A stretch of 64,000 nucleotides of DNA, taken from Candidatus Omnitrophota bacterium. Its GTDB lineage: Bacteria; Omnitrophota; Gorgyraeia; Pluralincolimonadales; Pluralincolimonadaceae. Position 1 is the stretch's first letter, and the number at the start of each line of letters is the position of its first letter. This document shows, piece after piece, positions 11,949-60,931 of this stretch. The translations under genes and the position numbers were made by a program. The DNA is taken from positions 15,142 to 79,141 of the forward strand of contig JAUYOH010000139.1 of NCBI GenBank assembly GCA_030695925.1, in the 5' to 3' direction. A model generated the notes under the pieces. That model saw only the letters and a program-made list of their open reading frames with translations, made no database searches and was not told the origin of the DNA.

Positions 11949-11972
11949 TAACCTAAAGGGGGATTAAGAATC

Positions 11973-12431: not shown

Positions 12432-12481
12432 GCCGTTGAATGCTTAAAAGTTAAGCAACTCTTAATATCGCGGATAATATT

Positions 12482-28368: not shown

Positions 28369-28433
28369 AGCATTCTCCTTTTGCCTCGATTTTAACCGAA
28401 TATCCGCGTGAAAGCAATAAGAAATTTCTTTTC

Positions 28434-28461
28434 TTGCTTTTTTAAAGAAGTTTGGTATAAT
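28434..28461 (+). promoter_or_regulatory. Sigma-70 promoter with extended -10 upstream of nadE
   Basis: TTGCTT (28434-28439), 16-nt spacer, TGgTATAAT (-10 at 28456-28461). Preceded by the palindrome AAGAAATTTCTT. Confidence 0.5.
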
Positions 28462-28487
28462 ATGAGGCTAAATTAAGCGAGGTATTT

Positions 28488-39680: not shown

Positions 39681-40657
39681 AAGTCGGTCTGACCTTTGAT
39701 TTAAAGCCCAAAGATTCTCCGGGCGACTTTTTTGCCGAGCACGACAGCGAAGAAACGATATCTTTGATAGAGAACGCGCTGAAGAAGCACGGCCATAAAG
39801 TCATTCGCATAGGCTCGGCCAAGGAACTGCTTAAAAAACTGCGCGCCTTAAACTGCGACATCGTCTTCAATATAGCCGAGGGGATATCCGGAAGGAACAG
39901 AGAGTCGGAAGTCCCCGCGATCCTCGAGGCCTTCGGAATTCCCTACGTAGGTTCAGATGCTTTGACACTCTCGGTCTCGCTGGATAAGATAATCTCAAAA
40001 AAGATATTCGCCTATCATGATATCCCCACGCCCCCTTACTTCGAGTGCGCTAATAAGAAGGACATGATCGTGCCTAAGGGGTTTTCTTTTCCGCTTATCG
40101 TTAAGCCGCGGTATGAGGGTTCTGCCAAGGGTATCGAACCCGACTCAAAAGTGAACGATTTCAAGGCCTTCAGGAAAAAGGTAAAACGTATAATCGAGGA
40201 CTACAGACAGCCTGCGCTTGTGGAAGAATTCATAAGCGGCTGGGAGTTTACCGTCGGCATAATCGGAAACGAGGTCCTGCCGGTCGTGCAGCGGCATGTG
40301 GAATCGAGGACGAACTTAAGCAGCCACATCTTTGAGAAGACGGGGACAGGTAAAGACAAATTAAGATATAAGGAATTCCTTGAGATAGAAGCCGAATTAG
40401 AGTCACAGATTAAGGACTACGCCCTTACCGCGTTCCGCGGTCTCGATTGCCGTGACTTCACGAGGCTGGATTTCCGCGTAAGCGAACGTCTTTCATCACG
40501 CAAGAAGCTAAAGATATATCTCTTGGAGATAAACCCTTTGCCGTCTCTGGCAAAAGACGATTACTTCGCGATGACGTCCGAGTTATTGGGCATTTCCTAT
40601 AATGAGATGATAAATAAGATCTTGGATGCCGCCGTTAAAAGATACAAATGCCGATGA
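39677..40657 (+). CDS. D-Ala--D-Ala ligase-family ATP-grasp enzyme (substrate unknown)
   Basis: 326 aa, GTG start overlapping the GH94 stop. Has DIVFNIAEGISGRNRESEVPAILEAFGIPYVGSDALTLSVSLDKIISKKIF, an ATP-grasp core (PLIVKPRYEGSAKGI) and LLEINPLPSL. Confidence 0.7.
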   Translation: MKVGLTFDLKPKDSPGDFFAEHDSEETISLIENALKKHGHKVIRIGSAKELLKKLRALNCDIVFNIAEGISGRNRESEVPAILEAFGIPYVGSDALTLSVSLDKIISKKIFAYHDIPTPPYFECANKKDMIVPKGFSFPLIVKPRYEGSAKGIEPDSKVNDFKAFRKKVKRIIEDYRQPALVEEFISGWEFTVGIIGNEVLPVVQRHVESRTNLSSHIFEKTGTGKDKLRYKEFLEIEAELESQIKDYALTAFRGLDCRDFTRLDFRVSERLSSRKKLKIYLLEINPLPSLAKDDYFAMTSELLGISYNEMINKILDAAVKRYKCR

Positions 40658-41433
40658 AAGACGCGTATTCATATCCTAAGTATTGCGACATAGCCTATAA
40701 CTGGGACAGAAAACCGGAGTGCGATTTCATCGAGGAGTGCATAAGGCGGTATTCTGATATTAAGGTCGCTTCCATTCTGGATATCGCTTGCGGCACAGGT
40801 ATACATTTAAGGGAATTCGCGCGGCGCGGTTACGATGTCATGGGATTAGACAAGTCGAAGGAAATGGTTGACTTCGTTATGCAAAAGTCCGAATCTGAGG
40901 GCCTTAAAATAAACTGTGCCCAATCAAGCATGAAGGAATTTAAATTGGGACGGCAATTTGAATGCGTGATCTGCATGCTCGATTCATTCAGGTATCTCCT
41001 GACAGATGAGGATATATTGTCACACCTGAAGTCTGTCGCTTATGCCCTTGAGCCGGGCGGCTTATATATATTGGATCTCTGGATGCCGAAAGGCGGGACG
41101 ATAACTGAGTGGGAGGATATTTCGTGGGTGCAAGGGGAGAAGGATATCCGGATAGACGCGAGATACTGCCAACATGCCGGGACATTCGACGAGAAGGCAA
41201 AGACCTTCGAGGACGAACTGATCTTCAGAGTGCAAAGCCCTGATTTTAATTCCGTTATAAGATCGCGCGTAAAGACAAGGGCCTTATATTACGGGGAATT
41301 TAAAAGCCTCATCGCCGCTTTAGGCTTTTTTGATTGTGTCGGCAGATTTTATAATTTTGACTTTGATTTAAAAGAAGGTTATAATATTAAAATAGTAAGG
41401 ACTAATATAATCTTAAAGAGAAAAAGGGGGTAG
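40648..41433 (+). CDS. Class I SAM-dependent methyltransferase
   Basis: 261 aa. Motif I ILDIACGTGIH; LDKSKEMV; post-I and motif II pattern. 10-nt overlap with the ATP-grasp gene. Confidence 0.75.
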   Translation: MPMKDAYSYPKYCDIAYNWDRKPECDFIEECIRRYSDIKVASILDIACGTGIHLREFARRGYDVMGLDKSKEMVDFVMQKSESEGLKINCAQSSMKEFKLGRQFECVICMLDSFRYLLTDEDILSHLKSVAYALEPGGLYILDLWMPKGGTITEWEDISWVQGEKDIRIDARYCQHAGTFDEKAKTFEDELIFRVQSPDFNSVIRSRVKTRALYYGEFKSLIAALGFFDCVGRFYNFDFDLKEGYNIKIVRTNIILKRKRG

Positions 41434-41438
41434 GCAAG

Positions 41439-41780
41439 ATGCGAAACGGCGTATTTAAGTCTGTAACAATATCGGTCTTATTTATCGGCATGATTTACTT
41501 GGTAGGCTGCGCCGGCATCGAACCGCCTACGCCGAAGGAGATCTTAAGCCATCCTTTTGGGACATCGATGTTGCGAGTTGGCCTGACAAAAGATAGGATT
41601 CTGGCGCAATGGGGCGATCCGGATTTAAAGGAATATGACAACACGGGCAAATGGGACAACGCCAAGGAGAAATGGACTTATTACGCCAGATATGGGGAGG
41701 TCCCGGTAAACGCGGGATACCTTTCGAAGACGCAATATCTTTATTTTGACGGAAACTATTTAGTCAAATTTACCGAATAG
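41439..41780 (+). CDS. Small lipoprotein, BamE/SmpA-OmlA-like
   Basis: 113 aa with lipobox YLVGCAG. RVGLTKDRILAQWGDPD...KWTYY resembles the SmpA_OmlA fold signature. Confidence 0.45.
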   Translation: MRNGVFKSVTISVLFIGMIYLVGCAGIEPPTPKEILSHPFGTSMLRVGLTKDRILAQWGDPDLKEYDNTGKWDNAKEKWTYYARYGEVPVNAGYLSKTQYLYFDGNYLVKFTE

Positions 41781-41829
41781 TATGACTGAGATGTTTAATT
41801 GTTGTGTCCAAAAGATGACCCTCGAAGCC

Positions 41830-43179
41830 TTACTCGGTGATCCCAGTAAAAGTAAAATCCTTGATCAGTATTGCCGGTACGACATAAGAGCCGATCTCCT
41901 GCGCGGGATCGCTTATCAGTTTTCTTTCCTTCGAGATACCCTTGATGTTCGAGAAGGCCCTTAAGATACTTTCGGTAAACCGCAGGTTCTTTAAGGGTTT
42001 TTTGACTTTGCCGTCTTCGATTAAAAATGTGCCGTCGCGGGTGAGCCCGGTCATCAGCGCTTCTTTGGGCTCAAGCAGGCCGTTTACATAATGGAATCTT
42101 GTCACCGATATTCCCTTGTTTATAGACTTTCTCATCTCATCGATCGATAAATCGCCCGGTTCCATAACGAGATTAAGCGGCAGAGGGCCGTCGGTCTCAT
42201 CGGGCAAGGGGGCATGGCCGGTCGATTCCTTTTTATATAACGAGCCGTAGTGGCTGTCATACACCACTCCCTTCGCGACTCCGTTCTCTATAAGCATGAC
42301 CTTCTTCTTGGGAGTCCCCTCGAAATCGAAAGGATATACGATCGTTTCGGGATTGAAGCCATCATCGTATATCGTGACCTTCTCGGACATTATCTTGTCC
42401 CCTATCCTGTCCGCCATAAACGAGGTCTTCTCATAGAACTGCTTCGCGCCGAAACCGATGTAACCGAGCCACTGCATTATCTCCCCGACCGCCTCAGGTT
42501 CCAGGAGGCAGTCATACCCGCCTAATTCTATCTGCTGCGGATTTTTCCCGTCGAGGCATTTTCTGACGGCTTCCTCGAGGGTGTTTTCCCAGTTTATCAT
42601 CGCCACATTCCTTGAGACCTGCCCGCCGAATCCCGATGAGTTCTCGTCCATCGCGATTAATTTAAGCACCGCGGATGTCGCGGCCTGATATCTGGCGTCG
42701 TTATATGAATTTACCACCGCTATCTCTTCTTCGCCGGTCATAAAGGAGCCGGCCAGACGCAGGTCATATTTTTTTACGGAATCAAAGGTCCGGGTTATAT
42801 TCTCTATCCTGCGGTCGAAGAGGGGGTCGACGGTCTCCTGATAATATGTGGTGACCGGAGGGACTATCTCCCCGGACGGGAATTTGGCTGTTACCTTTGG
42901 TTTTGGCGAGACCTTCGCGATATGAGAGGCGGTCTTAAGCGCTTCCCTCAAGTCATCCGGCTTAAGCGAGCCGGTGGAGGAGACGCCTATCTTGCCGTCA
43001 AAGTCGACCTTAAAGAATATTTCTATCTCGGATTCCTCGATGTCCTGATGTATCCTGAAATTGCGGAACCTCGTGACCCTCATCATGGTGGAGTAACAGC
43101 ATACGAGCGTCTGGTCGGCGTTGGACCATTTAACCGCTTGCGTCAGGATATCGAGCAATTCTTCTTTTCCGATGGTCAT
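41830..43179 (-). CDS. pmbA: PmbA/TldE-family protein (non-catalytic partner of TldD)
   Basis: 449 aa. TldD/PmbA-fold sequence without an HExxxH motif. 4-nt overlap with the upstream tldD-like gene. Confidence 0.75.
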   Translation of the reverse strand: MTIGKEELLDILTQAVKWSNADQTLVCCYSTMMRVTRFRNFRIHQDIEESEIEIFFKVDFDGKIGVSSTGSLKPDDLREALKTASHIAKVSPKPKVTAKFPSGEIVPPVTTYYQETVDPLFDRRIENITRTFDSVKKYDLRLAGSFMTGEEEIAVVNSYNDARYQAATSAVLKLIAMDENSSGFGGQVSRNVAMINWENTLEEAVRKCLDGKNPQQIELGGYDCLLEPEAVGEIMQWLGYIGFGAKQFYEKTSFMADRIGDKIMSEKVTIYDDGFNPETIVYPFDFEGTPKKKVMLIENGVAKGVVYDSHYGSLYKKESTGHAPLPDETDGPLPLNLVMEPGDLSIDEMRKSINKGISVTRFHYVNGLLEPKEALMTGLTRDGTFLIEDGKVKKPLKNLRFTESILRAFSNIKGISKERKLISDPAQEIGSYVVPAILIKDFTFTGITE

Positions 43180-44615
43180 CTTTTTTTACCTACCTGTACA
43201 TTTTCAAATCTCGCGGGGGATGCGCCGTGGCCTACGTGCATGACCTGTCCGGGTTCTCCCTTTCCGCAATTAGGTATACCGTGCAGTTTCCAGTATTTCG
43301 AGTTCGCGATGCCGCTGCAACTTGCCCAGAAGTCCGGCGTTATGCCTGTGTAAAAGGGATTTTTCAGGACATCGCCGATTTTTCCGTTCTTGATCTCCCA
43401 GCCTATTTCGGTGCCGAATTGAAAATTAAGCCTCATATCATCTATGGACCATGTTTTATTGGTCGCAAGCAAGATGCCGTCTTTCGTATCAGAGATAAGT
43501 TCTTCGAGGCTCGACTCTCCCGGTTCGAGATTTATATTCGTCATCCTTATCAGGGGAAGGGCGCTCCAGCTGGAAGCCCTCATCGCGCCGCTGGATCTTC
43601 CGCCTATCTTGTGCGCCGCCTCTCTCGAACTTAAGTATCCGACAAATATACCGTCTTTTATAATAGGTATCTTTTGCGCGACTACACCTTCGTCATCGAA
43701 AGCGAAAGTACCCACACCGCCCTCGCAGGTGGCATCCGCCGTGATATTGATTAATTTTGAGCCATATCTGAATTTTCCGAGTTTATCCGAACTAAGAAAA
43801 GTCGCTCCCGCGAAACTTACCTCATCGCCAAAGGCCCTGTCCAATTCAGCCGCGTGGCCGCATGACTCGTGTATCTGGAGCGCTAACTGTGTCGTATCTA
43901 GGATCACTGTTGTTATCTTTGAGGGACATTCCTTCGCGTGAAGCAGGCTTACGGCTTCTTTCTTTACTCCCTCCGCGCCGCCTACGAGGTCGAGCTCCGT
44001 TATATATTCGTATCCTCTTTGAGCGATATCGCTGTGCGCCATAGGGTATGACCTGCGCTGGACCTCATCGCCCGAGACGGCTATCGCTTCTACATAGCCG
44101 CCGCTTTCTATGAACTCCTGCTCTATCTCCGAGCCCTCGGTAGAGAGAAAGAACTTGTATGTACGGTAGAAATCGAGCGCGGCAACGGCAGTCTTTATAT
44201 TCTGGTGGGATTTTAAGGCCTGGGATGCCGACATCAGGTAGTCTAGTTTTTTATGTATGGGGACTTCAAAAGGATCTGTCTCGCATCTGGATTTAAACGA
44301 CGCCTTGACCGCCTCGACTGGCGCTAAGTAGATCTTTGTCTTGTTTATAGTCGCGGTCGCCTCGGCTATCGCCATCGCGCGCTGCGCGGTCTTCTCGACA
44401 TTATTCTTGGAAAGGTCAGCGCAGGAAGAGAATCCCCAGCTTCCGCGCTTTAAGATGCGCACCGAGAAACCCTCGTCGGTCTTGGAGGCGATATTTTCCA
44501 CCTCGTTATTCTTTACGACAAGGGACTCGTGGCTGCGTCTTACGAAACGGATATCCGCGTAGTCGACCTCTTTGCTTTTAAGATATTTTATACCGTTCCT
44601 GAGGGCTTCTTTCAT
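43176..44615 (-). CDS. tldD: TldD-family metalloprotease
   Basis: 479 aa. HESCGH (HExxxH) metal site within QIHESCGHAAELD. C-terminal GxC...G barrel region typical of TldD. Confidence 0.8.
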   Translation of the reverse strand: MKEALRNGIKYLKSKEVDYADIRFVRRSHESLVVKNNEVENIASKTDEGFSVRILKRGSWGFSSCADLSKNNVEKTAQRAMAIAEATATINKTKIYLAPVEAVKASFKSRCETDPFEVPIHKKLDYLMSASQALKSHQNIKTAVAALDFYRTYKFFLSTEGSEIEQEFIESGGYVEAIAVSGDEVQRRSYPMAHSDIAQRGYEYITELDLVGGAEGVKKEAVSLLHAKECPSKITTVILDTTQLALQIHESCGHAAELDRAFGDEVSFAGATFLSSDKLGKFRYGSKLINITADATCEGGVGTFAFDDEGVVAQKIPIIKDGIFVGYLSSREAAHKIGGRSSGAMRASSWSALPLIRMTNINLEPGESSLEELISDTKDGILLATNKTWSIDDMRLNFQFGTEIGWEIKNGKIGDVLKNPFYTGITPDFWASCSGIANSKYWKLHGIPNCGKGEPGQVMHVGHGASPARFENVQVGKKR

Positions 44616-44655
44616 GGGTATCAGAGGTTAATTATACCATCTCGCCTTTAAAACA

Positions 44656-44664
44656 TGCTATAAT
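44656..44664 (+). promoter_or_regulatory. Extended -10 promoter (TGcTATAAT) predicting a near-leaderless mRNA
   Basis: TGCTATAAT at 44656-44664. The ATG of the 471-aa ORF lies 11 nt after the -10, and no SD lies between them. Confidence 0.4.
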
Positions 44665-44674
44665 CTTTTTCAAG

Positions 44675-46090
44675 ATGAAAAATGAGATAAAAACGATACA
44701 GGAAAAGCTAAACAAAGTTTTCTTAAGGCTTCCCAAATCGACAGTACGGCAGTTGTTCGACAAGTTAAGGGAGGAATCGCTGAGGCGCGGCGTGGTCCTG
44801 TACGACGAGGAAGGTGAGCCGCAGGTGGTGGCTATCTGTGTCCGTCCTTGGATCATGACAAAACAGCAGAAGAGGTTCTTCCACGGGCTCTGCCTCAATA
44901 TGAAGAAAGCGCTTCAGAGGATGGCCCAGATATATTATAACGAACCGCAGGCAAGGCAGATCCTCACGCTTACCCCGCGTGAAGAGGAGTGGTTCTTCGA
45001 GATATACGGGGCGAGCACCCGCCGCATCCAGAGACACCAGACCGTCTTTGACAGGGTCGACGCCAACGCCGTATTTTCCGTAGCCAATTGGAAGAATTCC
45101 TTTATATTCATCGAGACTAACGCCATCGGTGTTGGCGGGGTCCATTATATCCCCGCCGCGACGTATATATTGGAAGACATAGTATTTCCTGTCATCAGGG
45201 ACAGCATAAGCAATATAAGACTGGAAAGGCAGGACGATATCCGTGAGCTCCTGTTTGAGACCATAATGAATCACGCGAAGAAGATCGGCCGTCCCCGTCC
45301 CAATGTCATTTTTATGGAGGACCAGCGCTCGCTCGACGGCTCGGACGAGCACGCGTTCGCCGCTATTTACCTAAGGACGAAAGGAGCGACCGCTTTCGCG
45401 ACCGACCCGAGGGAGCTATACCTTAAGGACGGCCAGATATACTTCAGGGATACGCCTGTCGATATAATCTACAGGGACTGTTCGATAGACGAATTGCAAG
45501 AGATGGAAGACCAAGGCGAAAAAGTAGACATTTTGAAAGAGGCGTTTAAGAAGAATCAGGTCGTCTCTTCCATATCCGGTGAATTTGACCACAAGAGCAC
45601 GTTCGAGATATTTACCGACGATGATTATAGCGGTTATTTTACGCCGATACAAAGAAGGTTGTTCAAAAAATATGTCGCCTGGACGCGCCTGATCTGGGAC
45701 AGGAAGACCGAATGCCCGACAGGAAGGCGTGTCGATCTTTTGAAATATATAGAGACGCATAAGGACGGCCTTGTCATAAAACCGAACAGGACCTACGGCG
45801 GCAAAGACGTCGTTATAGGACGATTCGTAAAGGCCGCCGAGTGGAAGAAGGCGCTGGAAGAAGCGATAAAAGATGAACGCTCCTGTGTCGTACAGGAATA
45901 CGCCGAGGTCAAGGAAGAAAAGTTTCCTGTCCTTAACGAAGACGGGACGGTCACGATGGAAAAAAATTATGAGATCTCAGGATTCACCTCATCCGAGTCG
46001 GGGCTCGCCGTTATGGCGAGATGCTCGATAGACCCGGTCGTGAATATCTCGCGAAGAGGCGGCATCATCCCCGTTGTCCTTGTAGAATAA
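44675..46090 (+). CDS. Uncharacterised protein, ATP-grasp-like (possibly circularly permuted amidoligase type)
   Basis: 471 aa. C-terminal LVIKPNRTYGGKDVVIGRF...CVVQEY resembles the ATP-grasp nucleotide loop. The family name was not verified. Confidence 0.35.
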   Translation: MKNEIKTIQEKLNKVFLRLPKSTVRQLFDKLREESLRRGVVLYDEEGEPQVVAICVRPWIMTKQQKRFFHGLCLNMKKALQRMAQIYYNEPQARQILTLTPREEEWFFEIYGASTRRIQRHQTVFDRVDANAVFSVANWKNSFIFIETNAIGVGGVHYIPAATYILEDIVFPVIRDSISNIRLERQDDIRELLFETIMNHAKKIGRPRPNVIFMEDQRSLDGSDEHAFAAIYLRTKGATAFATDPRELYLKDGQIYFRDTPVDIIYRDCSIDELQEMEDQGEKVDILKEAFKKNQVVSSISGEFDHKSTFEIFTDDDYSGYFTPIQRRLFKKYVAWTRLIWDRKTECPTGRRVDLLKYIETHKDGLVIKPNRTYGGKDVVIGRFVKAAEWKKALEEAIKDERSCVVQEYAEVKEEKFPVLNEDGTVTMEKNYEISGFTSSESGLAVMARCSIDPVVNISRRGGIIPVVLVE

Positions 46091-46097
46091 TTTACCC

Positions 46098-46126
46098 TTG
46101 ACAGAGCCCTAAAGGTGAGGTATATT
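46098..46126 (+). promoter_or_regulatory. Sigma-70 promoter of the LacI-family regulator operon
   Basis: TTGACA (46098-46103), 17-nt spacer, TATATT (46121-46126). Confidence 0.55.
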
Positions 46127-46159
46127 TGAAGCACTTCAATTTTTATTGAAAGATTTCAA
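46126..46159. promoter_or_regulatory. Two LacI-type palindromic operators (O1 TTGAAGCACTTCAA, O2 TTGAAAGATTTCAA)
   Basis: O1 at 46126-46139 overlaps the -10; O2 is at 46146-46159. Centres are 20 bp apart. The motif recurs at 48425, 49116 and 49168. Confidence 0.6.
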
Positions 46160-46182
46160 TTATATGTCAAAGTGACTGCCAT

Positions 46183-47226
46183 ATGAAGATAACTCTCGAA
46201 CAAGTTGCCAAGAAATCAAATCTTTCCACCGGAACGGTCTCGATGGCCTTAAGGAACGATCCGCGGATCAAAGAATCGACCCGGAAATACGTCCTTGAGC
46301 TGGCTCAAAGATTAAATTATATTCCTTCCGCTTTAGGGAGGTCATTAGCTACTCAGAAGACCCAGATACTCGGGCTTACGATAACAGATATAACAAATCC
46401 CTTCTTTACAGAGGTCTTCAAGGGGGTCGAGGACATGGCCGTGAAGAATGGCTACAGCGTCATCCTCTCAAACACCGAATACGACCTTAAGCGCGAGACC
46501 GAGATTTTAAGGATATTTCTGGAAGGACGGGTTGACGGCCTGGTTATAGACCCGGTCGAAAACAACACTGATTTCGCGATGCTAAAGCAGCTCAAGAGGA
46601 TGGGCATACCATTTGTCTTATTAAGAAAGTTAAAGGGCCTGGAGAAAGAATATGACTATGTGATGGCCGATGATAAGAAAGGAGCCATTATTTTGACCCA
46701 GCATCTTATTAATATGGGCCATAGGCGCATAGGATATATAGGAAGCACGCAATGCGGAGTGACCGACCACGACAGGTTTTTGGGCTACAAACAGGCCCTC
46801 GCAAAAGCAGGCATAGAATTTGACGCGGGTTTAGTCACCAGCCATGATAGTTTTAGTTTATCCGAAGGCCTTAAGGTAGGCCGGGGACTGCTTCAGGCGA
46901 GAAAGGATATAGACGCTGTAGTCGCTTTCAATGACCTTTTGGCCTTAGGTGTTATGGAGGCGGCGTATTCTTTGGGCCTGCGCGTCCCGGAAGATTTAGC
47001 CGTGGGCGGGTTCGACGATATTTATATAAGCGGTTTAAGTCCGGTGTCATTAACTACCATCGCCTTGCCGAAATACGAATTGGGAAGCCGGGCAACCGAA
47101 CTGCTTATAGATAAGATAGAGGCGAAAAGGTCCAAGCGCCCCGCTAAGACAAACCAGATAGTATTGGAACCGAAACTGGTCATAAGAAGGTCGTGTGGGC
47201 ATAAAGAAAAGGAGGAGCAGCGATGA
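46183..47226 (+). CDS. LacI/GalR-family transcriptional regulator
   Basis: 347 aa. N-terminal HTH (ITLEQVAKKSNLSTGTVSMALRNDPRIKESTRKYVLELAQRLNYIPS). Periplasmic-binding-protein-like core (AVVAFNDLLALGVMEA, LAVGGFDD). Confidence 0.85.
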   Translation: MKITLEQVAKKSNLSTGTVSMALRNDPRIKESTRKYVLELAQRLNYIPSALGRSLATQKTQILGLTITDITNPFFTEVFKGVEDMAVKNGYSVILSNTEYDLKRETEILRIFLEGRVDGLVIDPVENNTDFAMLKQLKRMGIPFVLLRKLKGLEKEYDYVMADDKKGAIILTQHLINMGHRRIGYIGSTQCGVTDHDRFLGYKQALAKAGIEFDAGLVTSHDSFSLSEGLKVGRGLLQARKDIDAVVAFNDLLALGVMEAAYSLGLRVPEDLAVGGFDDIYISGLSPVSLTTIALPKYELGSRATELLIDKIEAKRSKRPAKTNQIVLEPKLVIRRSCGHKEKEEQR

Positions 47227-47792
47227 AAAAAGTCACAGTCTTGTTTTTGATTTGCCTTGCGTCTGTGGCGGGATTAGTCTCGTTCGCGACGGCGGCGATG
47301 ATGCCGGATTATATCTATCTATTTGATAAGAATAAGCCGGACCTGACCAATTGGAGGGATAAATTTGAAGATAACGCCTCCTCCAATGTCAAGATATTTT
47401 TGGAAGACTCTCCAGAAGGCAAAGTAGCGGTTATCGAGGGGCTTTCCGATAAGGAAAGTTTTGGCTGCGTCTATCAGGATGTTACCGTTGACGTAAATAA
47501 ATATCCTGTCCTGGAGATAGACGTCAATTCCGCTTCCAAGATGTGGTATATAATAATAGGTTGCGAAAACCTGAAAGACAAAGAGGTGGATTTTGACAAC
47601 AACAAGTTCGTAAGATTGCAATTTGATACCGACAGAGTCGGAAAGCATACTTATAATCTCAAGGCCTTGACCGGACTTTCCGGCGAACAGACCTTTCGCC
47701 TAAAAGTGGGCGTTGCCACGGGCGATGTCTATATTCCGGCGGTAGGGATAAAGATGGTATTCAGGAGCCTTAAGCTTGTCGGGACAAAATAG
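47223..47792 (+). CDS. Secreted protein of unknown function, paralogue family member 1
   Basis: 189 aa, ATGA overlap with the lacI-family gene. Signal peptide ...VSFATAA. Clearly homologous to residues ~30-175 of the 1578-aa protein (SFGCVYQDVTVDVNKYPVLEIDV vs SFGCIHKKLDVDFERYSYLEIEV; GKHTYNL vs GKFRYNL). Confidence 0.7.
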   Translation: MKKVTVLFLICLASVAGLVSFATAAMMPDYIYLFDKNKPDLTNWRDKFEDNASSNVKIFLEDSPEGKVAVIEGLSDKESFGCVYQDVTVDVNKYPVLEIDVNSASKMWYIIIGCENLKDKEVDFDNNKFVRLQFDTDRVGKHTYNLKALTGLSGEQTFRLKVGVATGDVYIPAVGIKMVFRSLKLVGTK

Positions 47793-47817
47793 AAACCAAG
47801 GAAAGGAAACGGGATAA

Positions 47818-48387
47818 ATGAAGATATCGATTGTAATCGCGATATCGCTTCTTCTGGTTGTCTTTGCGGTTGTCTCTTACGCCGATTCGATCGGATGGGG
47901 TTATGAGGATTGGGGGGCGGCTAATGCGGCACCCATAGGATGGGGCACATGGAATACAACTTTTGTCTCCAATGGGTTCGGACAAGACGGTCAAAGTACG
48001 GCTACCGTAACGGTAGGCAATATCAAGCCTTGGGGTAAGGTATTTTATTTTACGGGAGTTTCATCAAAAGCCATAGCCGGCGGCTTTAAATATCTCTATA
48101 TCAACACCTATGATATTAAGGGAGATATTCAGGTGGCTATTTCCGGCCCCAGCGATGCTGATTTTTATGATGTTACACCTCACTTGGTAAGCGGCAAGAC
48201 AGGTGATCCCCTTAAAAAGAGGGTATATTATCCCGGGCCTTATGTATTTGACTTGTCTGGTTGGAAGCCATTGCGTACCCACGCCAATGTATCGATTCAA
48301 CTGATCGGCGAGGGAGGGAAGGGAAAAAGCTTCACGATAAACCGTGTCTTCATCTCTGACTACAACCCTATGACTCAACCCAAATAA
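47818..48387 (+). CDS. Secreted protein of unknown function, paralogue family member 2
   Basis: 189 aa with signal peptide ...VVSYA. Weaker but co-linear similarity to member 1 (PWGKVFYFTGV...FKYLYINTYD...IQVAIS; SFTINRVFIS). Confidence 0.65.
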   Translation: MKISIVIAISLLLVVFAVVSYADSIGWGYEDWGAANAAPIGWGTWNTTFVSNGFGQDGQSTATVTVGNIKPWGKVFYFTGVSSKAIAGGFKYLYINTYDIKGDIQVAISGPSDADFYDVTPHLVSGKTGDPLKKRVYYPGPYVFDLSGWKPLRTHANVSIQLIGEGGKGKSFTINRVFISDYNPMTQPK

Positions 48388-48397
48388 TAAATTTCTA

Positions 48398-48438
48398 TTG
48401 ACAGAGAGATTTTTTGTAGTATAATTGAAGCGGTTCAA
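48398..48438 (+). promoter_or_regulatory. Sigma-70 promoter plus operator O3 (TTGAAGCGGTTCAA)
   Basis: TTGACA (48398-48403), 16-nt spacer, TATAAT (48420-48425). The operator at 48425-48438 overlaps the -10. Confidence 0.6.
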
Positions 48439-48462
48439 AAGTAAAAGGAGGTGGAACTGGCG

Positions 48463-49035
48463 ATGGGAAAGTTTTTATTGTTTTTAGCGGTAGTGGCCGG
48501 ACTTGTTTTATCGACTCAGATCGCCGGAGCGGAGACGATCTGGTCCGAGGATTTCTCGGATGTCAGCGATTGGGGCGTTGTTTTTGATCCGGGCGGCGGT
48601 TCAGTCATCAAGCGTTCTAATGGTCTGGATAGCATGCAGTCGGACAGCAATCCGGCCCATATGGCAGCGCTATATGTTGACAAAGAGCATGCCCAAGCTG
48701 CTTTTTCACCCAATCCGGTAGGTTCCAACTTTATTCCATTTGATCCGGCAAAGAAATCGGAATACACTCTAAAATGGAAAGTCGACAGACTTACAACGTC
48801 AGTCAGCTGGGATATCGCCATAGACGAATTTAACGCAAATAAAAAATATATAAACACTATTTGGAGCATATGTACCGCGAACAATGAGGCAGGAAAAGAA
48901 TTTTCAAAGAATTTGGGTAATAAGGGGTGGAGCGCAAGCACCAAATACGTAATACCAAAGATAAGTCTTCACAGCGGTGATGCCGCCCAGACAGCCTATC
49001 TATCTTATATGAGCCTAGAGAAGGCTTCAAAGTAA
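48463..49035 (+). CDS. Secreted protein of unknown function, paralogue family member 3
   Basis: ATG at 48463 (MGKFLLFLAVVAGLVLSTQIAGA). The track GTG at 48451 lies inside the AAGGAGG RBS. Mature N-terminus ETIWSEDFSDVSDWG parallels member 4 (ATVWTADFSNVTGWS). Confidence 0.65.
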   Translation: MGKFLLFLAVVAGLVLSTQIAGAETIWSEDFSDVSDWGVVFDPGGGSVIKRSNGLDSMQSDSNPAHMAALYVDKEHAQAAFSPNPVGSNFIPFDPAKKSEYTLKWKVDRLTTSVSWDIAIDEFNANKKYINTIWSICTANNEAGKEFSKNLGNKGWSASTKYVIPKISLHSGDAAQTAYLSYMSLEKASK

Positions 49036-49081
49036 CAAGCGGTATTGCAATAATATCCTCAATAAAAGCAAAAGATTACCA

Positions 49082-49181
49082 TTGACAAGTACCTAGGATA
49101 TGGTACAATCTAATATTGAAACGCTTCAAATAATAAAACAGCTTGCTTATTTTTTTGGCCTACCTAATTGAAGCGATTCAA
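49082..49181 (+). promoter_or_regulatory. Sigma-70 promoter plus operators O4 (TTGAAACGCTTCAA) and O5 (TTGAAGCGATTCAA)
   Basis: TTGACA (49082-49087), 16-nt spacer, TACAAT (49104-49109). O4 at 49116-49129, O5 at 49168-49181, both upstream of the PEP-CTERM gene. Confidence 0.6.
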
Positions 49182-49216: not shown

Positions 49217-49777
49217 ATGAAAAAATTACTTATACTCGCAGTGATAGCGCTTGGCATTCTAGTCGTAAATCCCTCTATGGCTTCAGCAACCGTTTGGACA
49301 GCGGATTTTAGCAACGTAACTGGTTGGTCACCTGCCGAAGGAGCGACTTTTACCAGCGATGGTTCAGCGGCTAAATTAGAGGATACTGCCGATGGTTCAG
49401 GTGTGGCAACTTGGGCTGGGACTCACGTTGATTATCAGGCCGGTGACCTTATCACTTTGGTCGTGTCCGGTGTTCATAATGCTCCTGTTAACGATACCTA
49501 TTGGAGGCTTAGCATCCATCAGTTTGACATCGCCAATGTGTATCTAGGTGAATTGGAATTGTTGCCTTACTCGCATTCTACAGGCACCTTTTCCAGTAGT
49601 TTTGCTGGTCTCAATGCCAGTACCGTTAAGTATGATCCGTCACTGAGAATTAGTACAATCAGTGGGACAGGCGATGCTACGTTTGACAACTTATCTGTTG
49701 TTCCGGAACCGGCAAGCCTGCTTCTTCTTGGAAGTGGTTTGTTAGGTCTAATTAGCGTTTCTCGCAAGAGAAAATAA
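49217..49777 (+). CDS. PEP-CTERM-anchored secreted protein, paralogue family member 4
   Basis: 186 aa with signal peptide ...PSMASA. C-terminal VPEP-ASLLLLGSGLLGLISV-SRKRK (nt 49700-49774) is a textbook PEP-CTERM sorting signal. Confidence 0.75.
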   Translation: MKKLLILAVIALGILVVNPSMASATVWTADFSNVTGWSPAEGATFTSDGSAAKLEDTADGSGVATWAGTHVDYQAGDLITLVVSGVHNAPVNDTYWRLSIHQFDIANVYLGELELLPYSHSTGTFSSSFAGLNASTVKYDPSLRISTISGTGDATFDNLSVVPEPASLLLLGSGLLGLISVSRKRK

Positions 49778-49792
49778 GCAGTTGTTTTAATG

Positions 49793-49844
49793 AGACAGGA
49801 GTTAGAAAAAGGATAAATCCCGATTTTGACTCCTGTCTTTTTTA
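49793..49844 (+). terminator. Rho-independent terminator after the PEP-CTERM gene
   Basis: AGACAGGAGT (49793-49802) pairs with ACTCCTGTCT (49829-49838). The loop is large (26 nt). Followed by TTTTTT. Confidence 0.55.
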
Positions 49845-49859
49845 ATCTGACATTTGCCC

Positions 49860-49888
49860 TTGACGAAAATCGAAATTCCTGATAAAGT
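49860..49888 (+). promoter_or_regulatory. Candidate sigma-70 promoter of the giant-protein operon
   Basis: TTGACG (49860-49865), 17-nt spacer, TAAAGT (49883-49888). No TTGAA-N4-TTCAA operator is seen here. Confidence 0.35.
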
Positions 49889-49924
49889 TAAGTTGTTTTT
49901 TCCGCCTCGATGAAGGAGGAGTAA

Positions 49925-52900
49925 TTGAGAATAAAGATCGTCCTTTTGGTATTAATAACGCTGAGTTTTTGCGGCATCAGCGGCATTGTTAATGCCGAAG
50001 ACAAAGAATCCTACCTCGATGTCTTTACCCCCGAAAAATCCGATCTGGGAACGTGGGCCTACGGCTGGGCGAACGAACCCGATGAAATCAATGCAGAGGT
50101 CGTCAACGGCGAGGCAGTCATTACCGGCGAGAGGCAAGACCAGAGTTTCGGTTGTATCCACAAGAAATTAGATGTCGATTTTGAGAGGTATTCTTATTTA
50201 GAGATCGAAGTGACGAGGGTCACTGACAGCTGGTATGTTATCTTCAGCAGCCCGGAATTCGAGAACGGGTTTGCGAGGATACAATCCGATACCAAAAAGA
50301 CCGGAAAATTCAGGTATAACCTGTGGGATTATCCGCAGCTTAAGGGGCAGGCGGAGTTTGATATCCAAATCGGAGTCAGTGCCCCGAATAAAAAGGGGCA
50401 AAAGGGCGCGCAAGTCGTCTTTAAGAACCTGCGTTTTATCGACGTCGGCGCAAAGAGGCCTCCGAGAGGCCCTAAGCTGGCCAAGCATGACCTGCCTTCG
50501 CCCATACCGCTAAGCAAGACCGAAAGGCCGCAGCCCGTAATCTCCAAGATCGCCCCTTTGCCATCGAAGGCTAAAGAGGCAGAACCCGTTGCGCCCGCCG
50601 TAAAAAAAAATATCTTTGAGGTCTTCGCAAGAGAAGAATCGCCTGTAAATCTAACATCTTCCGCGCCGGTTTTCGATGATACGGATAAAGACACAATAAC
50701 TATCGAGAACGATTGTTATAAGATAGTCTTTAGCAAGAAGAACGGCGCGTTAGTCGCAATAGAAGACAAGATAAATAGTGGAACGGTCTGCGCGGGTTCA
50801 GTCGGTGGGCAGTTATGGCGCCTTAATTTTTATAAAAGAAAGAGCATAACCAATAAAGATTTCAGCGCCGGTTCCCAAGAGAGGCCTTTTGAGTATAAAT
50901 GGCAGAAATCAAAAGGAGAGCTCTCGTTCTTATATCAGGACAAGACATCAGGTTTCCTGCTTAAGATAAAGGCACTCGCCTCAAAAAAAAACTATCTTGA
51001 CTTCCAGGTAGAGATAGAGAACGCCTACGAAGAACCCGCCATACTCCTTAACTTTCCCGAAGGCCTCAGCTTTAAACTCGAAAAATTAAGACAAGCCATC
51101 TTCCCTTTCAGGGGAGGCCTGGCCTTAAAGCCAGGTTTTTTTTTAGAGAGACGCTACATATCTGAATCCCAATATCTCTTTAGCGATTACTTTGCCGCAG
51201 AATTCGAGAAGAGTAATTTCTCTTTATATACCATCCAAAATCCGTCGCGCTGGACAGAAGCAACAATGTCGGTCGGTTATGATTCGTATCAGGGCGGTGT
51301 CGGATTCTATACCTACGCTCAGGCTACTTATATCCAGAAATCCAACAAGAAGACCGGTTCTTCAGGTTATTGGTCCAGCCCCGTCATAAGGATGCGTATC
51401 GCCGAGCCGGTTAAAGAGAGTATCCGGCATTATGCTCAAGATAACGGCTTCGACGAGATACCCGACCTTAATAAAAGGATCGACAAGGGCCTTTTTGATA
51501 AACTCTCCAAATCGGTCTTATTGAAATTCGACTTCAGCTGGATAGGCCAAAAATTCAGCGAGGTATCTGAATTCATCAAGACGCTTCCTTCGCCTACCCT
51601 TGTGCATATGGTTACTTTCTGGGAAAAAGGATTTGATAAGAACTATCCCGATTACCTGCCGCCCAATAAACAGTTCGGGACGCAGGAAGACCTAAAAAAT
51701 TTAGTCGCGGTGGCGCACGGCGAAGGACATCTGGTCATGCCCTACACTAACCCGACATGGTGGAACGAGAGCAAGACATTAGAGGCGCTTGGGGCAGAGA
51801 AGATCGCTGTAATAAAATTAGACGGGCACATCCATGATGAATACTATTGGGGGAAGAACTGGGGGGTAATCACAAGTCCGCATAATCCCGAAGTCATTAA
51901 AAGAACGCAACAGACCGTGCGGGAATTTAAGTATGACATACCCTGCGATATATTGTTTGAGGACCAGTTAGGAGCGAGGCCATGGCAATATGACCTGAAT
52001 CCGAAGGCAAGGGACCCGGTCCTTTACAAACAGGGGCTTATAGATTTCGCGAAGAGGGACTCAAAACAGATCCCTGTAATGTGCGAGGGCGGGTTTGACG
52101 GGCTTATGCCCTACGTTATCGCCTTCAGCGATATGGCGGTTAATAACTCGCTTCCGCCGGACAAGGTATTTAATAACTGGTACGGCGAGGGGAACTGGGA
52201 GACATTCCCTTACGCCTTATACGTAGCGCACGATAAGAACGGGTTTTATCAGCATAACCTCGCCCACGAAGTCTTTACGGACGCCAAGGACAAACTTATG
52301 TGGAATGTCGCATACGGGCATAATTTCACGCAGGGCTATTGGCCGAAGGAGTGGGAGAAGAGCCAGAAGAGATGGTTCTATATAGATGACGCTTTTCAGA
52401 AGAGCGTGGCTTCGCGGTATTTCGGCAAGAAATTGACGGATTTCCAAAGTCTTGACGGCAGAGTCACATTTAGCCGTTTCGAGGATATCGCCATAGTGGC
52501 GAATCATTCAAAGTCTAAGCCCTATCGTATAGAAAATTATATTATACCTCCGGAAGGGTTTCTCGCCGAGTCCGAGGGCGGCAATCTGGTCGCCGGAATG
52601 TTCAAGGTATTCAACGACGACCTATTGGCGGGCGAGCATTATATCATCGTAGAAAACCTGCCCAATAAAATAATAGTCAAGCAGCCGGATCCGAAGAGCA
52701 CTTTAATAAACGTTAAAAGGCCCGTTGATTGGAAAGAGGCCTCCGGGATAAAAATATCCTGCGCCGAAGGAGCCGTTCCCGCTGCTGTGACCGAAGACAA
52801 AATAACATTTCTTTATAACAGCCAAGAAATAGACAGCGAATATCTCATAGAATACGCCTCTCCGAAAGAAGACATAGAGTTAACTATATTGCCTGAGAAA

Positions 52901-54661
52901 AGATATGCCGGCTTAGGCGAGAACCTTAAGGTCAGTCTTGCCGCCAAGAACTTAAGCGGCGCATCGCTTAAAGAAGGAAAATTGGCTTTAAGCGTATGGC
53001 TTGTCCATGCCGCAGGGCCGGTTCCGGATATGTGGGCAGGTTATCTGGGGGATAGCGGGAACACCACCCAAATGAGCGAGATTTTTTATTCGCTTGACCC
53101 CGGCTCTCAGGTTGCCGCGGATTTCACTGTTCCGCTTCCGGAAAAGATAAAAGAGGGGGACGTGGTCTGGCTTAAGGGAGAGATAATCTACGGCCAGGAT
53201 TCCGCGAGAAAGATGAAGCAGATCCAGACGAAGGTCAATATAATACCAAAGGCGATAGAGATTCAGGTTGAGCCGATAGAGATCCTCATCTATCCCGATG
53301 TCAAGAGACAGATCGAGATCAGGATAAAGAATAACGAGGCCGGATCCCTTAAGGGAGAAATTAAGCTCGAGACCGATTTACCCAAAGGCGCGGCAGGCAA
53401 GGAGACTATACCCTTTTCACTTGAGCCGCTGGAAGAAAAGAGCATTTTTACGAACTTACTTGTCATGGCATCTGAAGCAGGCAAGGATTATAAGTTGACC
53501 GCTAAAATAAGATTGAATAATGTGGACTATTCTTCCGAAGCCTGCTCTATCAAAGCCAGAGAGGCGATACCCGAGATAGACTTGGGCCCGCAAAATGTCC
53601 TCGTCCTGGGCAAGAAACAGTCTTTATCTGTCGGTATAAAGGCTCACAAGGAAGTGCCGCTTAACGGCTGGTTGACTCTTAATATACCTCAGGGCTGGGA
53701 GATAACACCGCAGAAGCGGCTCTTGGAATTAGCTCCCGGCGAATATAAAAAGTTTGATTTTATCGTTACCCCTAATTCAAAAGGAGAGACTGATATAACC
53801 GCGGCCATAACCGTCTCAGGAGGAGCCGTTATCAAAGCGAAGGAACCGTTTAAGGTGATCGCCGGGAATAGAGAGGCGGCTTTGGTTGAATCAGACATCA
53901 ATGGGGACGGTTATATGGATATTGTGTTGGCGAACGCTTTAATAGAAGCCCAGGCGACAGAGGCAGTTGGCGGCAGGATCCTTTCTTTCTTTGTCAAGGA
54001 GACAGGTAACGATGAACTATACTCCGCGTATTCACAACTGCCGAAAGCAGGACAGCCGAAGGACTGGGTCGAATACGGGGGGATAAACGACTGGTTCCCT
54101 GAAGGATGGCCGGGTGAGGTCTGGGGAAATAAGTGGCAATATGAAGTAAGAGAAAGGGGACCCGAAGAGGTCTCGGTCAGAATGTGGACCGAGACGGAGA
54201 ATAAATTATATATCGAAAGGACTATGACATTACGGGCTGACTCCTCATCTTTAAAGTTAAGATACAAGATCAAGAACAACTCGGATAAAGAACAAGGGTT
54301 CATATGGGCGAACCATCCCGATCTGGCATGTGGCCCGTTCGACGCGACCGAGGAGAACCAAGCAGTGATTCCCGTCAAAGGCAAGGGCCTTGTAACACAG
54401 GATTACGGCAAGAGTATGAGCAAGACCGAGTATATACCGGACGGAGATCGGATCTTGGGATATGATAAGGCCAGCAACGAATATTTTATGCAGGAGTTTG
54501 ATAAGGATTTAATTGATAAAGTCGGCGTCTGGGAAGGCATCGGTTTTTATACTATGGAGTTGATATTTAAACCCCGGAAACTGAGGCCTCAGGAGGAATT
54601 TGACTTCGAAGTAAGATATAGCGCTGGGAAAGAAGACCCGCAAGATTTATTGAAAAGATGA
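49925..54661 (+). CDS. 1578-aa secreted multidomain protein (family module + glycoside-hydrolase-like core + beta-sandwich repeats + mutarotase-like C-terminus)
   Basis: TTG start 5 nt after AAGGAGG, with the signal peptide beginning at residue 1 (MRIKIVLLVLITLSFCGISGIVNA). Its N-module is homologous to the 47223 ORF and is followed by a Pro-rich linker. The central region is paralogous to the 62088 ORF. Downstream are NEW3/CARDB-like repeats (LNIPQGWEITP...LAPGE...FDFIVTP) and a DINGDGYMD motif. Confidence 0.8.
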   Translation: MRIKIVLLVLITLSFCGISGIVNAEDKESYLDVFTPEKSDLGTWAYGWANEPDEINAEVVNGEAVITGERQDQSFGCIHKKLDVDFERYSYLEIEVTRVTDSWYVIFSSPEFENGFARIQSDTKKTGKFRYNLWDYPQLKGQAEFDIQIGVSAPNKKGQKGAQVVFKNLRFIDVGAKRPPRGPKLAKHDLPSPIPLSKTERPQPVISKIAPLPSKAKEAEPVAPAVKKNIFEVFAREESPVNLTSSAPVFDDTDKDTITIENDCYKIVFSKKNGALVAIEDKINSGTVCAGSVGGQLWRLNFYKRKSITNKDFSAGSQERPFEYKWQKSKGELSFLYQDKTSGFLLKIKALASKKNYLDFQVEIENAYEEPAILLNFPEGLSFKLEKLRQAIFPFRGGLALKPGFFLERRYISESQYLFSDYFAAEFEKSNFSLYTIQNPSRWTEATMSVGYDSYQGGVGFYTYAQATYIQKSNKKTGSSGYWSSPVIRMRIAEPVKESIRHYAQDNGFDEIPDLNKRIDKGLFDKLSKSVLLKFDFSWIGQKFSEVSEFIKTLPSPTLVHMVTFWEKGFDKNYPDYLPPNKQFGTQEDLKNLVAVAHGEGHLVMPYTNPTWWNESKTLEALGAEKIAVIKLDGHIHDEYYWGKNWGVITSPHNPEVIKRTQQTVREFKYDIPCDILFEDQLGARPWQYDLNPKARDPVLYKQGLIDFAKRDSKQIPVMCEGGFDGLMPYVIAFSDMAVNNSLPPDKVFNNWYGEGNWETFPYALYVAHDKNGFYQHNLAHEVFTDAKDKLMWNVAYGHNFTQGYWPKEWEKSQKRWFYIDDAFQKSVASRYFGKKLTDFQSLDGRVTFSRFEDIAIVANHSKSKPYRIENYIIPPEGFLAESEGGNLVAGMFKVFNDDLLAGEHYIIVENLPNKIIVKQPDPKSTLINVKRPVDWKEASGIKISCAEGAVPAAVTEDKITFLYNSQEIDSEYLIEYASPKEDIELTILPEKRYAGLGENLKVSLAAKNLSGASLKEGKLALSVWLVHAAGPVPDMWAGYLGDSGNTTQMSEIFYSLDPGSQVAADFTVPLPEKIKEGDVVWLKGEIIYGQDSARKMKQIQTKVNIIPKAIEIQVEPIEILIYPDVKRQIEIRIKNNEAGSLKGEIKLETDLPKGAAGKETIPFSLEPLEEKSIFTNLLVMASEAGKDYKLTAKIRLNNVDYSSEACSIKAREAIPEIDLGPQNVLVLGKKQSLSVGIKAHKEVPLNGWLTLNIPQGWEITPQKRLLELAPGEYKKFDFIVTPNSKGETDITAAITVSGGAVIKAKEPFKVIAGNREAALVESDINGDGYMDIVLANALIEAQATEAVGGRILSFFVKETGNDELYSAYSQLPKAGQPKDWVEYGGINDWFPEGWPGEVWGNKWQYEVRERGPEEVSVRMWTETENKLYIERTMTLRADSSSLKLRYKIKNNSDKEQGFIWANHPDLACGPFDATEENQAVIPVKGKGLVTQDYGKSMSKTEYIPDGDRILGYDKASNEYFMQEFDKDLIDKVGVWEGIGFYTMELIFKPRKLRPQEEFDFEVRYSAGKEDPQDLLKR

Positions 54662-58619: not shown

Positions 58620-58631
58620 TAAAGTTAAATT

Positions 58632-60925: not shown

Positions 60926-60931
60926 GTTCTT

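Follow-up and report, generated by a model that had tools for sequence, protein, structure and literature searches.

A LacI-family repressor gene and a recurrent 14-bp palindrome: a candidate autoregulated regulon of small secreted proteins in an uncultured Omnitrophota bacterium

Introduction

What controls a group of small secreted proteins encoded beside glycan-processing enzymes, and what does the cell respond to when it makes them? This question is raised by a 64,000-nt stretch of DNA from Candidatus Omnitrophota bacterium (assembly GCA_030695925.1, contig JAUYOH010000139.1, positions 15,142 to 79,141), here called the window, in which five copies of the palindrome TTGAA-N4-TTCAA (O1–O5) accompany a LacI-family gene (hereafter LacI) and the genes of four small secreted proteins (s1–s4). 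Our results point, with a probability of about 85%, to a dimeric repressor of the LacI/GalR type, encoded at 46183–47226, that would bind O1–O5, silence LacI-s1-s2, s3 and s4, and be released by a sugar. We infer physical binding, the mode of repression and the identity of the inducer from the sequence. As a local regulon with autoregulation, the system is of an ordinary LacI type; what is new is its occurrence in an uncultured phylum, and its targets are somewhat unusual. It appears to be the first regulon reconstruction for a transcription factor of Omnitrophota, a phylum without cultured members; in a sample of recent Omnitrophota genome papers LacI regulators were not mentioned.

Occurrence of the motif in the window

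The pattern TTGAANNNNTTCAA (TTGAA-N4-TTCAA) has five exact matches in the window, compared with a chance expectation of 0.10. All five lie in intergenic DNA, within the stretch from 46.1 to 49.2 kb, although coding sequence makes up about 94.8% of the window. A 16-mer weight matrix built from nine sites gives O1–O5 scores of 18–25 bits, and no other position in the window reaches the cut-off of 9 bits; mononucleotide shuffles of the window produce about one such match. When one mismatch is allowed, only three further sites appear (3549, 40151 and 52601). According to the gene map these fall within open reading frames (ORFs), away from any promoter context, and they represent the chance level.

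Since both the motif and the intergenic regions are AT-rich, a chance cluster had to be considered. None of 100 dinucleotide-preserving shuffles reached five matches, however, and the sites recur in the same places on more than 10 independent contigs. The shuffles, the matrix scan and the recurrence in relatives led us to reject this explanation, the probability of which is next to negligible.

The operators are closely associated with three near-consensus sigma-70 promoters (Table 1). Counting both strands, the 64 kb contain only seven promoter-like sites that agree with the consensus at 11 or more of 12 positions, and these promoters are three of them. The first T of O3 is the last T of the P2 −10 hexamer, so one base is shared just as it is between O1 and P1. 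Distances from operator to start codon are 37–101 nt, and O5 lies 52 bp from O4. The initial annotation had described the five sites, a central CG in three of them (O3, O4 and O5), the sequences and spacings of the three promoters, the overlap of the operator with the −10 element at two promoters, and the position of O4 7 nt downstream of the third; all of this was confirmed. O2, whose centre is not CG, is probably a weaker auxiliary site.

Table 1. Positions of promoters, operators, genes and other elements in the window
Feature	Position	Strand	Description
Promoter P1	46098..46126	+	TTGACA-N17-TATATT; operon LacI-s1-s2
Operator O1	46126..46139	.	TTGAAGCACTTCAA; centre CA; first T is last T of P1 −10
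Operator O2	46146..46159	.	TTGAAAGATTTCAA; centre GA; LacI 5' leader, 37 nt before ATG
LacI-family repressor gene	46183..47226	+	347 aa; PF00356, PF13377, PF00532
s1	47223..47792	+	189 aa, family A; start overlaps LacI stop codon
s2	47818..48387	+	189 aa, no detectable family; 25 bp after s1
Promoter P2	48398..48425	+	TTGACA-N16-TATAAT, 12/12 consensus; drives s3
Operator O3	48425..48438	.	TTGAAGCGGTTCAA; centre CG; 38 nt before s3 ATG
s3	48463..49035	+	190 aa from ATG 48463 (ORF opens with GTG 48451); family B
Promoter P3	49082..49109	+	TTGACA-N16-TACAAT with extended −10 TG; drives s4
Operator O4	49116..49129	.	TTGAAACGCTTCAA; centre CG; at about +1 of P3, 7 nt after −10
Conserved T-tract	49147..49160	+	TTATTTTTTTGGCC, between O4 and O5
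Operator O5	49168..49181	.	TTGAAGCGATTCAA; centre CG; s4 5' leader, 49 nt before ATG
s4	49217..49777	+	186 aa, family B; PEP-CTERM sorting signal
Intrinsic terminator	49792..49844	+	Long hairpin then U-run; ends regulated block
Operator-free promoter	49860..49888	+	TTGACG-N17-TAAAGT; giant-protein operon 49925–62083

Anatomy of the motif and of the regulator

Information content was calculated from 13 distinct 14-mers after symmetrisation. Positions 1–5 and 10–14 hold 1.76–2.0 bits and the central CG 1.26 bits, whereas positions 6 and 9 hold 0.05 bits; the flanks are A/T. This corresponds to the consensus WW-TTGAA-n-CG-n-TTCAA-WW, a core of 14 bp or 16 bp with the W flanks, the inner part of which (GAA-n-CG-n-TTC) resembles the core of RbsR/PurR-type sites. 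The central CG is present in 22 of the 31 listed sites and in 10 of the 13 distinct ones. In the LacI family as a whole, even palindromes with a central CG have been reported for 1173 of 1303 regulators (Ravcheev 2014, PMC4052901). The same study found autoregulation in 72% of the regulators, more than 75% of sites between −140 and −30 relative to the start codon, and intersite distances that peak at multiples of the helical repeat, pairs about two turns apart being common (PMC4052901). By its information profile, the motif has the classic signature of a LacI-family operator.

The protein encoded at the locus is a complete regulator with a LacI helix-turn-helix and a periplasmic-binding-protein-like sugar domain. 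PF00356 matches residues 4–49 with 40.3 bits (cut-off 27), and the effector domain matches PF13377 with 110 bits and PF00532 with 92 bits. CcpA, RbsR and PurR are the closest solved structures, all matched over the full length with E values of 1e-51 to 1e-40. The DNA-binding domain is colinear with CcpA residues 1–72 without gaps; the hinge PSALGRSLA aligns with PNAVARGLA of CcpA, and the hinge residue Leu55, which would be expected to insert at the central CpG, is conserved. Recognition helix positions occupied by Arg and Asn in CcpA are Met21 and Arg24 here. The orthologues show hardly any variation in the recognition helix (GTVS-M/L-ALR) and the hinge (PSALGR-x-LAT), in keeping with the conserved half-site. 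No C-terminal tetramerisation helix is visible in the orthologue alignment, and no NCBIfam equivalog comes near its cut-off, RbsR and PurR being the best sub-threshold matches.

At 46160–46185 the LacI start codon has no recognisable Shine-Dalgarno sequence, while s3, s4 and the giant gene downstream have a strong GGAGG. The lack of such a sequence is consistent with low-level translation of the repressor.

Conservation of the sites in orthologous loci

Orthologues of the regulator form three groups, with 90–98%, 54–56% and 49–52% identity. The closest clade (90–95%) comprises loci L003, L005, L006–8 and L021–23. The 54–56% clade comprises L001, L002 (GCA_030631665.1) and L004, a short locus that has neither intergenic DNA nor a site. 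The clade at about 50% comprises L016 and L017–L020 of the P0012-type organism, whose contigs carry a LacI of 49% identity; L017–L020 themselves are short contigs, reached through the PEP-CTERM protein P0130, that hold sites and no LacI gene. All strong sites in these loci are intergenic and stand upstream of LacI or of secreted-protein genes. The window and the orthologous loci together make up roughly 151 kb, in which the exact matches are all located in intergenic DNA that precedes a gene, and the same is true of the three one-mismatch sites that keep the central CG (L001 16197, L017 2027, L022 7199). Of the other matches with one mismatch, that at L017 2889 is likewise intergenic and follows an exact site by 44 bp; none of the remainder stands in a promoter context. 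A genome-contig search with the LacI protein returned only distant LacI genes (23–37% identity) from other phyla, which were used as a negative control: seven loci around these unrelated genes, about 124 kb, contain one exact match. A metagenome-contig search with the orthologue alignment gave no match.

In the 90–95% clade O1 and O2 always stand before LacI, with invariant half-sites. The sequence of O2 is identical in all these loci, whereas the centre of O1 varies (GCAC, TCGA, ACGA), being CA here and CG in relatives. The two sites are 20 bp apart, or 41 bp after a 21-bp duplication, which corresponds to two or four helical turns. P1 is kept in L003, L005, L006, L007 and L021–L023. Other sites of this clade precede s3- and s4-type genes, the gene of a 1681-aa giant protein in L022 (a double site) and a 212-aa gene in L023. 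The counterpart of P3 has a −10 element overlapping the operator in L021, L022 and also L001; the window and L003 carry a 7-bp insertion at this point.

The 21-bp tandem duplication between O1 and O2 (L003 676–730, L006, L007 and L023, compared with window 46126–46159) leaves a decayed copy of O2 (TTGAAAAAATTATA). In the gene calls of L003 and L006–L008, O2 abuts the annotated LacI start codon.

In L001 and L002 LacI lies inside the enzyme operon and there are two sites: TTGACA-17-TAATAT followed by TGAAGCGCTTCAA before a PEP-CTERM gene, and TTGAAA-16-TATAAT followed by TGAAGCGATTTAA before a giant gene of more than 2000 aa. The stretch of L001 that was examined stops short of the enzyme-operon promoter. 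L016 has the exact site TTGAACTGTTTCAA with the centre TG, 13 nt before the LacI start codon. Four sites were found in P0012-type contigs. One is TGAACCGTTTCAA after TTGACT-17-TAGAAT, before a small gene; the PEP-CTERM gene is preceded by TATGAAGCGGTTCAA, or by TTGACA-17-TATAAA directly followed by TTGAAGCGGTTCAA; and TTGACA-17-TATAAT followed by TGAATCGATTCAA precedes an L017 gene that in a sister contig is a 926-aa enzyme of glycoside hydrolase (GH) families GH99/GH71. Judged from these sites, the regulon in relatives would also include large secreted proteins, a GH99/GH71 glycosidase among them.

L016 also has, at positions 20–34, a variant of the palindrome in which the spacer is 3 nt long (TTGAAATTTTCAA). 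It lies about 29 bp upstream of the exact site that precedes the gene of the 51% LacI orthologue, and may be a second site that has decayed or is non-canonical.

Taken over the three clades, a module of −35, a 16–17-nt spacer and an operator overlapping the −10 is found at seven promoters between which little else aligns; the P2-O3 type of module is itself present in all three. This bears on the possibility that the palindromes have no regulatory role and are copies of a promoter cassette inherited with paralogous small genes. It is true that s3 and s4 are paralogues, that P2- and P3-type promoters have in common a T-rich spacer and, upstream, a stretch rich in A, and that the arrangement of the small-gene block differs between relatives. 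A neutral sequence passed on by descent would be expected to decay to the same extent throughout, however, whereas clades whose regulators are about 50% identical keep the −35, the −10, the half-sites and the CG, while positions 6 and 9 and most of the flanks vary; the invariant columns of the seven-promoter alignment are almost entirely the −35, part of the −10 and TTGAA.CG.TTCAA. In addition, O1, O2 and the L016 site before LacI stand in a different promoter context. The cassette explanation is therefore very improbable. The operator also stays with its target: the P2-O3-s3 cassette is relocated relative to s2 in L021, and the s4-like giant gene of L001 bears an operator too.

The palindromes could also be read as RNA hairpins in the 5' leaders that act on stability or translation. 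O2, O4 and O5 would be transcribed, and each would form a stem of 5–6 bp with a 4-nt loop, of a marginal stability of −1.5 to −2.3 kcal/mol. O1 and O3 overlap the −10 and would be transcribed at most in part. No covariation is seen in the stems; the half-sites are invariant, and their sole changes (TTTAA, ATGAA) break the pairing. On account of the marginal energies and the missing covariation we rejected this explanation as extremely improbable.

Which protein reads the operators?

The palindromes could be real operators that are bound by another regulator, be it a second LacI paralogue, a CcpA-like global factor or a ROK protein, with the LacI gene as just one of its targets. In favour of this, the view of the genome is limited to 64 kb, the gene of a ROK-family protein lies 11 kb upstream, and the closest solved relatives of the LacI protein include the global regulator CcpA. 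On the other hand, the motif adjoins the LacI orthologue wherever a locus contains both such an orthologue and intergenic DNA, it stands directly before LacI in two of the three clades, its anatomy is of the LacI type, and the DNA-reading residues are conserved along with it. ROK-type palindromes are longer than the motif here, which counts against a ROK protein as the binder. The register of a cre site is TGnAA-n-C|G and that of the half-site here is TTGAA-n-C|G, which counts against a CcpA-like binder. Another regulator is thus quite unlikely. Because of the constant adjacency, the site before LacI in two of three clades and the LacI-type anatomy, the adjacent LacI protein is by far the best candidate for the binder, as far as can be judged from sequence.

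Small secreted proteins as predicted targets

The four small genes would be controlled through three promoters: P1 would drive s1 and s2 as part of the LacI operon, P2 would drive s3, and P3 would drive s4. Family A comprises s1 and the N-terminal domain of the 1578-aa giant protein encoded downstream (E 2e-21). Family B comprises s3, s4 and the N-terminus of a second giant protein of L001; s4 is 50% identical to the first 164 residues of the latter. Free-standing homologues of N-terminal domains of giant proteins are thus s1 (for window 49925–50455) and s4 (for L001 16258 onward). Orthologues of s2 were found only in L003 (88%) and L021 (72%), and in L021 s2 follows s3.

The C-terminus of s4 has a PEP motif, a hydrophobic helix and a basic tail (VPEPASLLLLGSGLLGLISVSRKRK), and it matches PF07589 with 28.8 bits (cut-off 20.7) and TIGR02595 with 24.9 bits (cut-off 16). 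AlphaFold2 models of s1 and s4 are beta-sandwiches with a predicted local distance difference test (pLDDT) score of 83 and 78, respectively. Their Foldseek neighbours in the Protein Data Bank include many carbohydrate-binding modules (CBMs; CBM22, 4, 16, 11, 6 and 35) at template modelling (TM) scores of only 0.4–0.55, along with non-CBM jelly rolls, among them ephrin-receptor ligand-binding domains and tailspike domains. No Pfam CBM family matches the small proteins of the window; a 193-aa protein beside LacI in P0012-type contigs does match Pfam CBM_11. On the basis of these models the small proteins are most likely binders of glycans, either secreted or anchored to the cell, that correspond to the putative targeting domains of the giant enzymes in free-standing form.

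In the comparison with L021, no part of the locus is more diverged than the small-gene block, which has 73% identity at the DNA level as compared with 85% in the flanks. The mature part of s4 (49234–49701) has no DNA-level match in L003 and L021 despite flanks of 85–93% identity; the signal peptide, the PEP-CTERM tail, O4/O5 and the terminator are conserved around this diverged body. At the protein level s4 is 32–33% identical to the proteins in the same position in L003 and L021, compared with 91% for LacI. The body of s4 looks like the result of a cassette replacement or of very fast evolution of a surface protein. Furthermore, the order of s2 and P2-O3-s3 (window 47798–49035) is swapped in L021 (10615–11930), the promoter-operator travelling with s3.

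The giant-protein operon as the regulon boundary

The regulated block is followed by an intrinsic terminator of −32.2 kcal/mol (z −6.1) that is invariant in L003 and L021, and then by an operon (49925–62083) encoding the giant protein, a GH130 enzyme, a beta-phosphoglucomutase-like protein of the haloacid dehalogenase (HAD) type, a GH65 enzyme and a CUT1-type ATP-binding cassette (ABC) transporter. The giant protein is secreted and contains DUF6259 and NPCBM_assoc domains. GH130 is closest to beta-1,2-oligomannan and beta-1,2-mannobiose phosphorylases, and GH65 to kojibiose phosphorylase (3wiq, E 1e-135). No operator site of at least 9 bits occurs between 49778 and 62083, and the promoter at 49860 is without the motif. 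This promoter is the regulon boundary in this genome.

The initial annotation had read the motif as defining a small LacI regulon in which the regulator controls itself and the four small genes, with the giant-protein promoter outside. The comparison supports the regulon, since the motif co-occurs with orthologues of the regulator in three clades and has a LacI-type information profile. It also supports autoregulation (two sites upstream of LacI in every locus of the 90–95% clade, and the exact site of L016), as well as control of the four small genes by the route given above. The absence of a site at the giant-protein promoter holds for the window, although not as a general property: giant genes of L001 and L022 and a large-protein promoter of L017 carry the operator, so its absence is specific to the clade of this genome.

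The region 49775–49930, which covers the terminator, the operator-free promoter and the leader of the giant gene, is 95% identical among the window, L003 and L021; the coding DNA on its flanks is less conserved (about 85% in L021). Further elements may thus be under constraint here, such as the GAAAATCGAAATTCC stretch that separates the −35 from the −10.

Proposed mechanism

In the mechanism that we propose, each helix-turn-helix of the repressor dimer would read one TTGAA half-site, and the hinge helices would insert at the central CpG of the 14-bp palindrome. Without its sugar effector the repressor would sit on O1 and O3, which cover the last part of the −10 and the sequence up to and including the transcription start, as well as on O4 (at about +1) and on the leader sites O2 and O5. 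RNA polymerase would then be blocked at three very strong promoters, and the repressor's own operon LacI-s1-s2, s3 and the PEP-CTERM protein s4 would be silent. The leader sites O2 and O5 may add occupancy or act as roadblocks. Since the operator covers the −10 end and the start (O1, O3 and the ancestral O4) or the start (O4), repression would occur by exclusion of RNA polymerase or by a block of the open complex. An oligosaccharide would release the repressor, probably one derived from a glycan processed by the neighbouring glycoside hydrolases and phosphorylases. Because of the neighbouring GH65 and GH130 enzymes, which are kojibiose-phosphorylase-like and beta-1,2-mannoside-phosphorylase-like, kojibiose or other alpha-glucosides and beta-1,2-mannosides would be the first effector candidates. 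It is consistently the autoregulatory sites whose centres depart furthest from the canonical form (CA and GA in the window, TG in L016), which suggests that self-repression is weaker than repression of the targets.

Several observations weigh against this reading. The operon of catabolic enzymes and the transporter has no operator, though local LacI regulators normally control such genes. The ROK-family protein (411 aa) is a second candidate sugar regulator nearby. O1 and O2 of this genome lack the central CG. The distance between O4 and O5 is not conserved in helical phase (52 bp in the window and L003, 49 bp in L021, 50 bp in L022), so that cooperative binding or looping is not supported. 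The assignment of the small proteins as CBM-like relies on modest TM scores and on models from shallow alignments. The motif scan covers 64 kb of the source genome, and the specificity of the motif and the extent of the regulon hold for that stretch. Finally, the sequencing runs that contain the locus are DNA metagenomes from groundwater or soil throughout, and no RNA run is among them.

Looping between O4 and O5 was considered and is not supported, since their spacing is not phase-conserved and no C-terminal tetramerisation segment is seen.

A wider interpretation would be that the system is not a catabolic switch and instead provides sugar-triggered display of fast-evolving, cassette-swappable, lectin-like surface proteins by which an ultra-small cell attaches to a glycan surface, such as the cell wall of a host or prey or a fungal or bacterial exopolysaccharide. 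In its favour, the regulator and the operators are fixed (LacI 90–95%) and the putative binders turn over (s4 32–33%) in the same relatives; we still regard display as an unlikely purpose of the repressor-operator system.

If the repressor acts as proposed, the locus offers a compact set of parts, i.e. three near-consensus sigma-70 promoters, a 14-bp operator and its repressor, and a handle on which glycan the lineage senses. It also connects a set of small secreted proteins that lack annotation, and the domains at the N-termini of giant Omnitrophota proteins, with control that responds to sugar. The regulatory mechanism itself is a textbook one and opens no new question.

Comparison with known systems

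The nearest likeness is to local LacI/GalR sugar repressors such as RbsR, GalR, MalR and CelR, which have the same two-domain protein and an even, CG-centred palindrome, and likewise show sites 30–140 bp before start codons, autoregulation and pairs of sites about two helical turns apart (PMC4052901). The regulator described here differs in that it is not orthologous to any named regulator, its scores against NCBIfam equivalogs being far below the cut-offs. The targets are different as well: they are secreted CBM-like proteins, not catabolic enzymes and transporters, and the host is an uncultured member of Omnitrophota.

KojR is a predicted LacI-family regulator of a pgmB-kojP-kojEFG cluster for kojibiose and trehalose in Caldicellulosiruptor and Chloroflexus (PMC8579813, PMC4052901). 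As in that cluster, the LacI gene of the window lies beside genes for a GH65 kojibiose-phosphorylase-like protein, a beta-phosphoglucomutase-like HAD protein and a CUT1-type ABC transporter. In the window, however, these genes stand behind an operator-free promoter, and the locus adds GH130, GH94 and giant DUF6259 proteins. Since the GH65-pgmB-ABC set is behind the operator-free promoter, the regulon as seen here is not of the KojR type.

In the lac operon of E. coli O1 is located at +11, with O2 and O3 as auxiliary operators. The arrangement of a main operator on the promoter or start with an auxiliary operator in the downstream leader is shared by O1 with O2 and by O4 with O5 of the window. 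Unlike in lac, the regulator has no visible tetramerisation helix and the O4–O5 spacing of 49–52 bp varies in phase.

The predicted targets can be compared with SusE/F-like surface glycan-binding proteins (SGBPs) and free-standing CBMs. These are likewise small secreted or anchored beta-sandwiches (predicted in our case) encoded beside glycoside hydrolases and a sugar transporter, and are under a sugar-responsive regulator, as the small proteins here would be. In contrast to SGBPs, the small proteins of the window are not members of a CBM family by sequence and the anchor is of the PEP-CTERM type, not a lipid. Control would be by a LacI-type regulator, not by SusR, a hybrid two-component system or an extracytoplasmic function (ECF) sigma/anti-sigma pair.

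Other features of the locus

The window, L003, L021 and L022 share a conserved T-tract, TTATTTTTTTGGCC, between O4 and O5, and in L017 and L023 some sites are preceded by tracts of a similar kind. The tract may serve to bend the DNA or may be an element of the leader. We also considered whether the T-tract/GGCC element before O5 could be a sigma-54 promoter or a second sigma-70 promoter, and rejected this because relatives keep neither the spacing nor the GG/GC elements.

No relative of solved structure was found for the giant protein, and DUF6259 was not found in the searchable literature. The population occurs in groundwater metagenomes.

Genes upstream of LacI encode a GH35/42-like protein, the ROK protein, a solute-binding protein and GH94. 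The ROK gene (34754–35989), about 11 kb upstream, stands between the GH35/42-like gene and that of the solute-binding protein. A GAF-ANTAR protein (31600–32325), encoded after glutamine synthetase, is another regulator of the neighbourhood.

The window has no Rfam or tRNA matches, and this includes three long stretches of 517–854 bp without an ORF of at least 150 aa (8901–9691, 11843–12696 and 27971–28487).

Between GH94 and LacI there is a conserved block (window 39677–46090, L021 2317–8847). It comprises genes for a D-Ala-D-Ala-ligase-like ATP-grasp protein, a methyltransferase and a 113-aa protein, divergent TldD/PmbA genes and a gene for a circularly permuted ATP-grasp protein, and may be a peptide-modification cassette.

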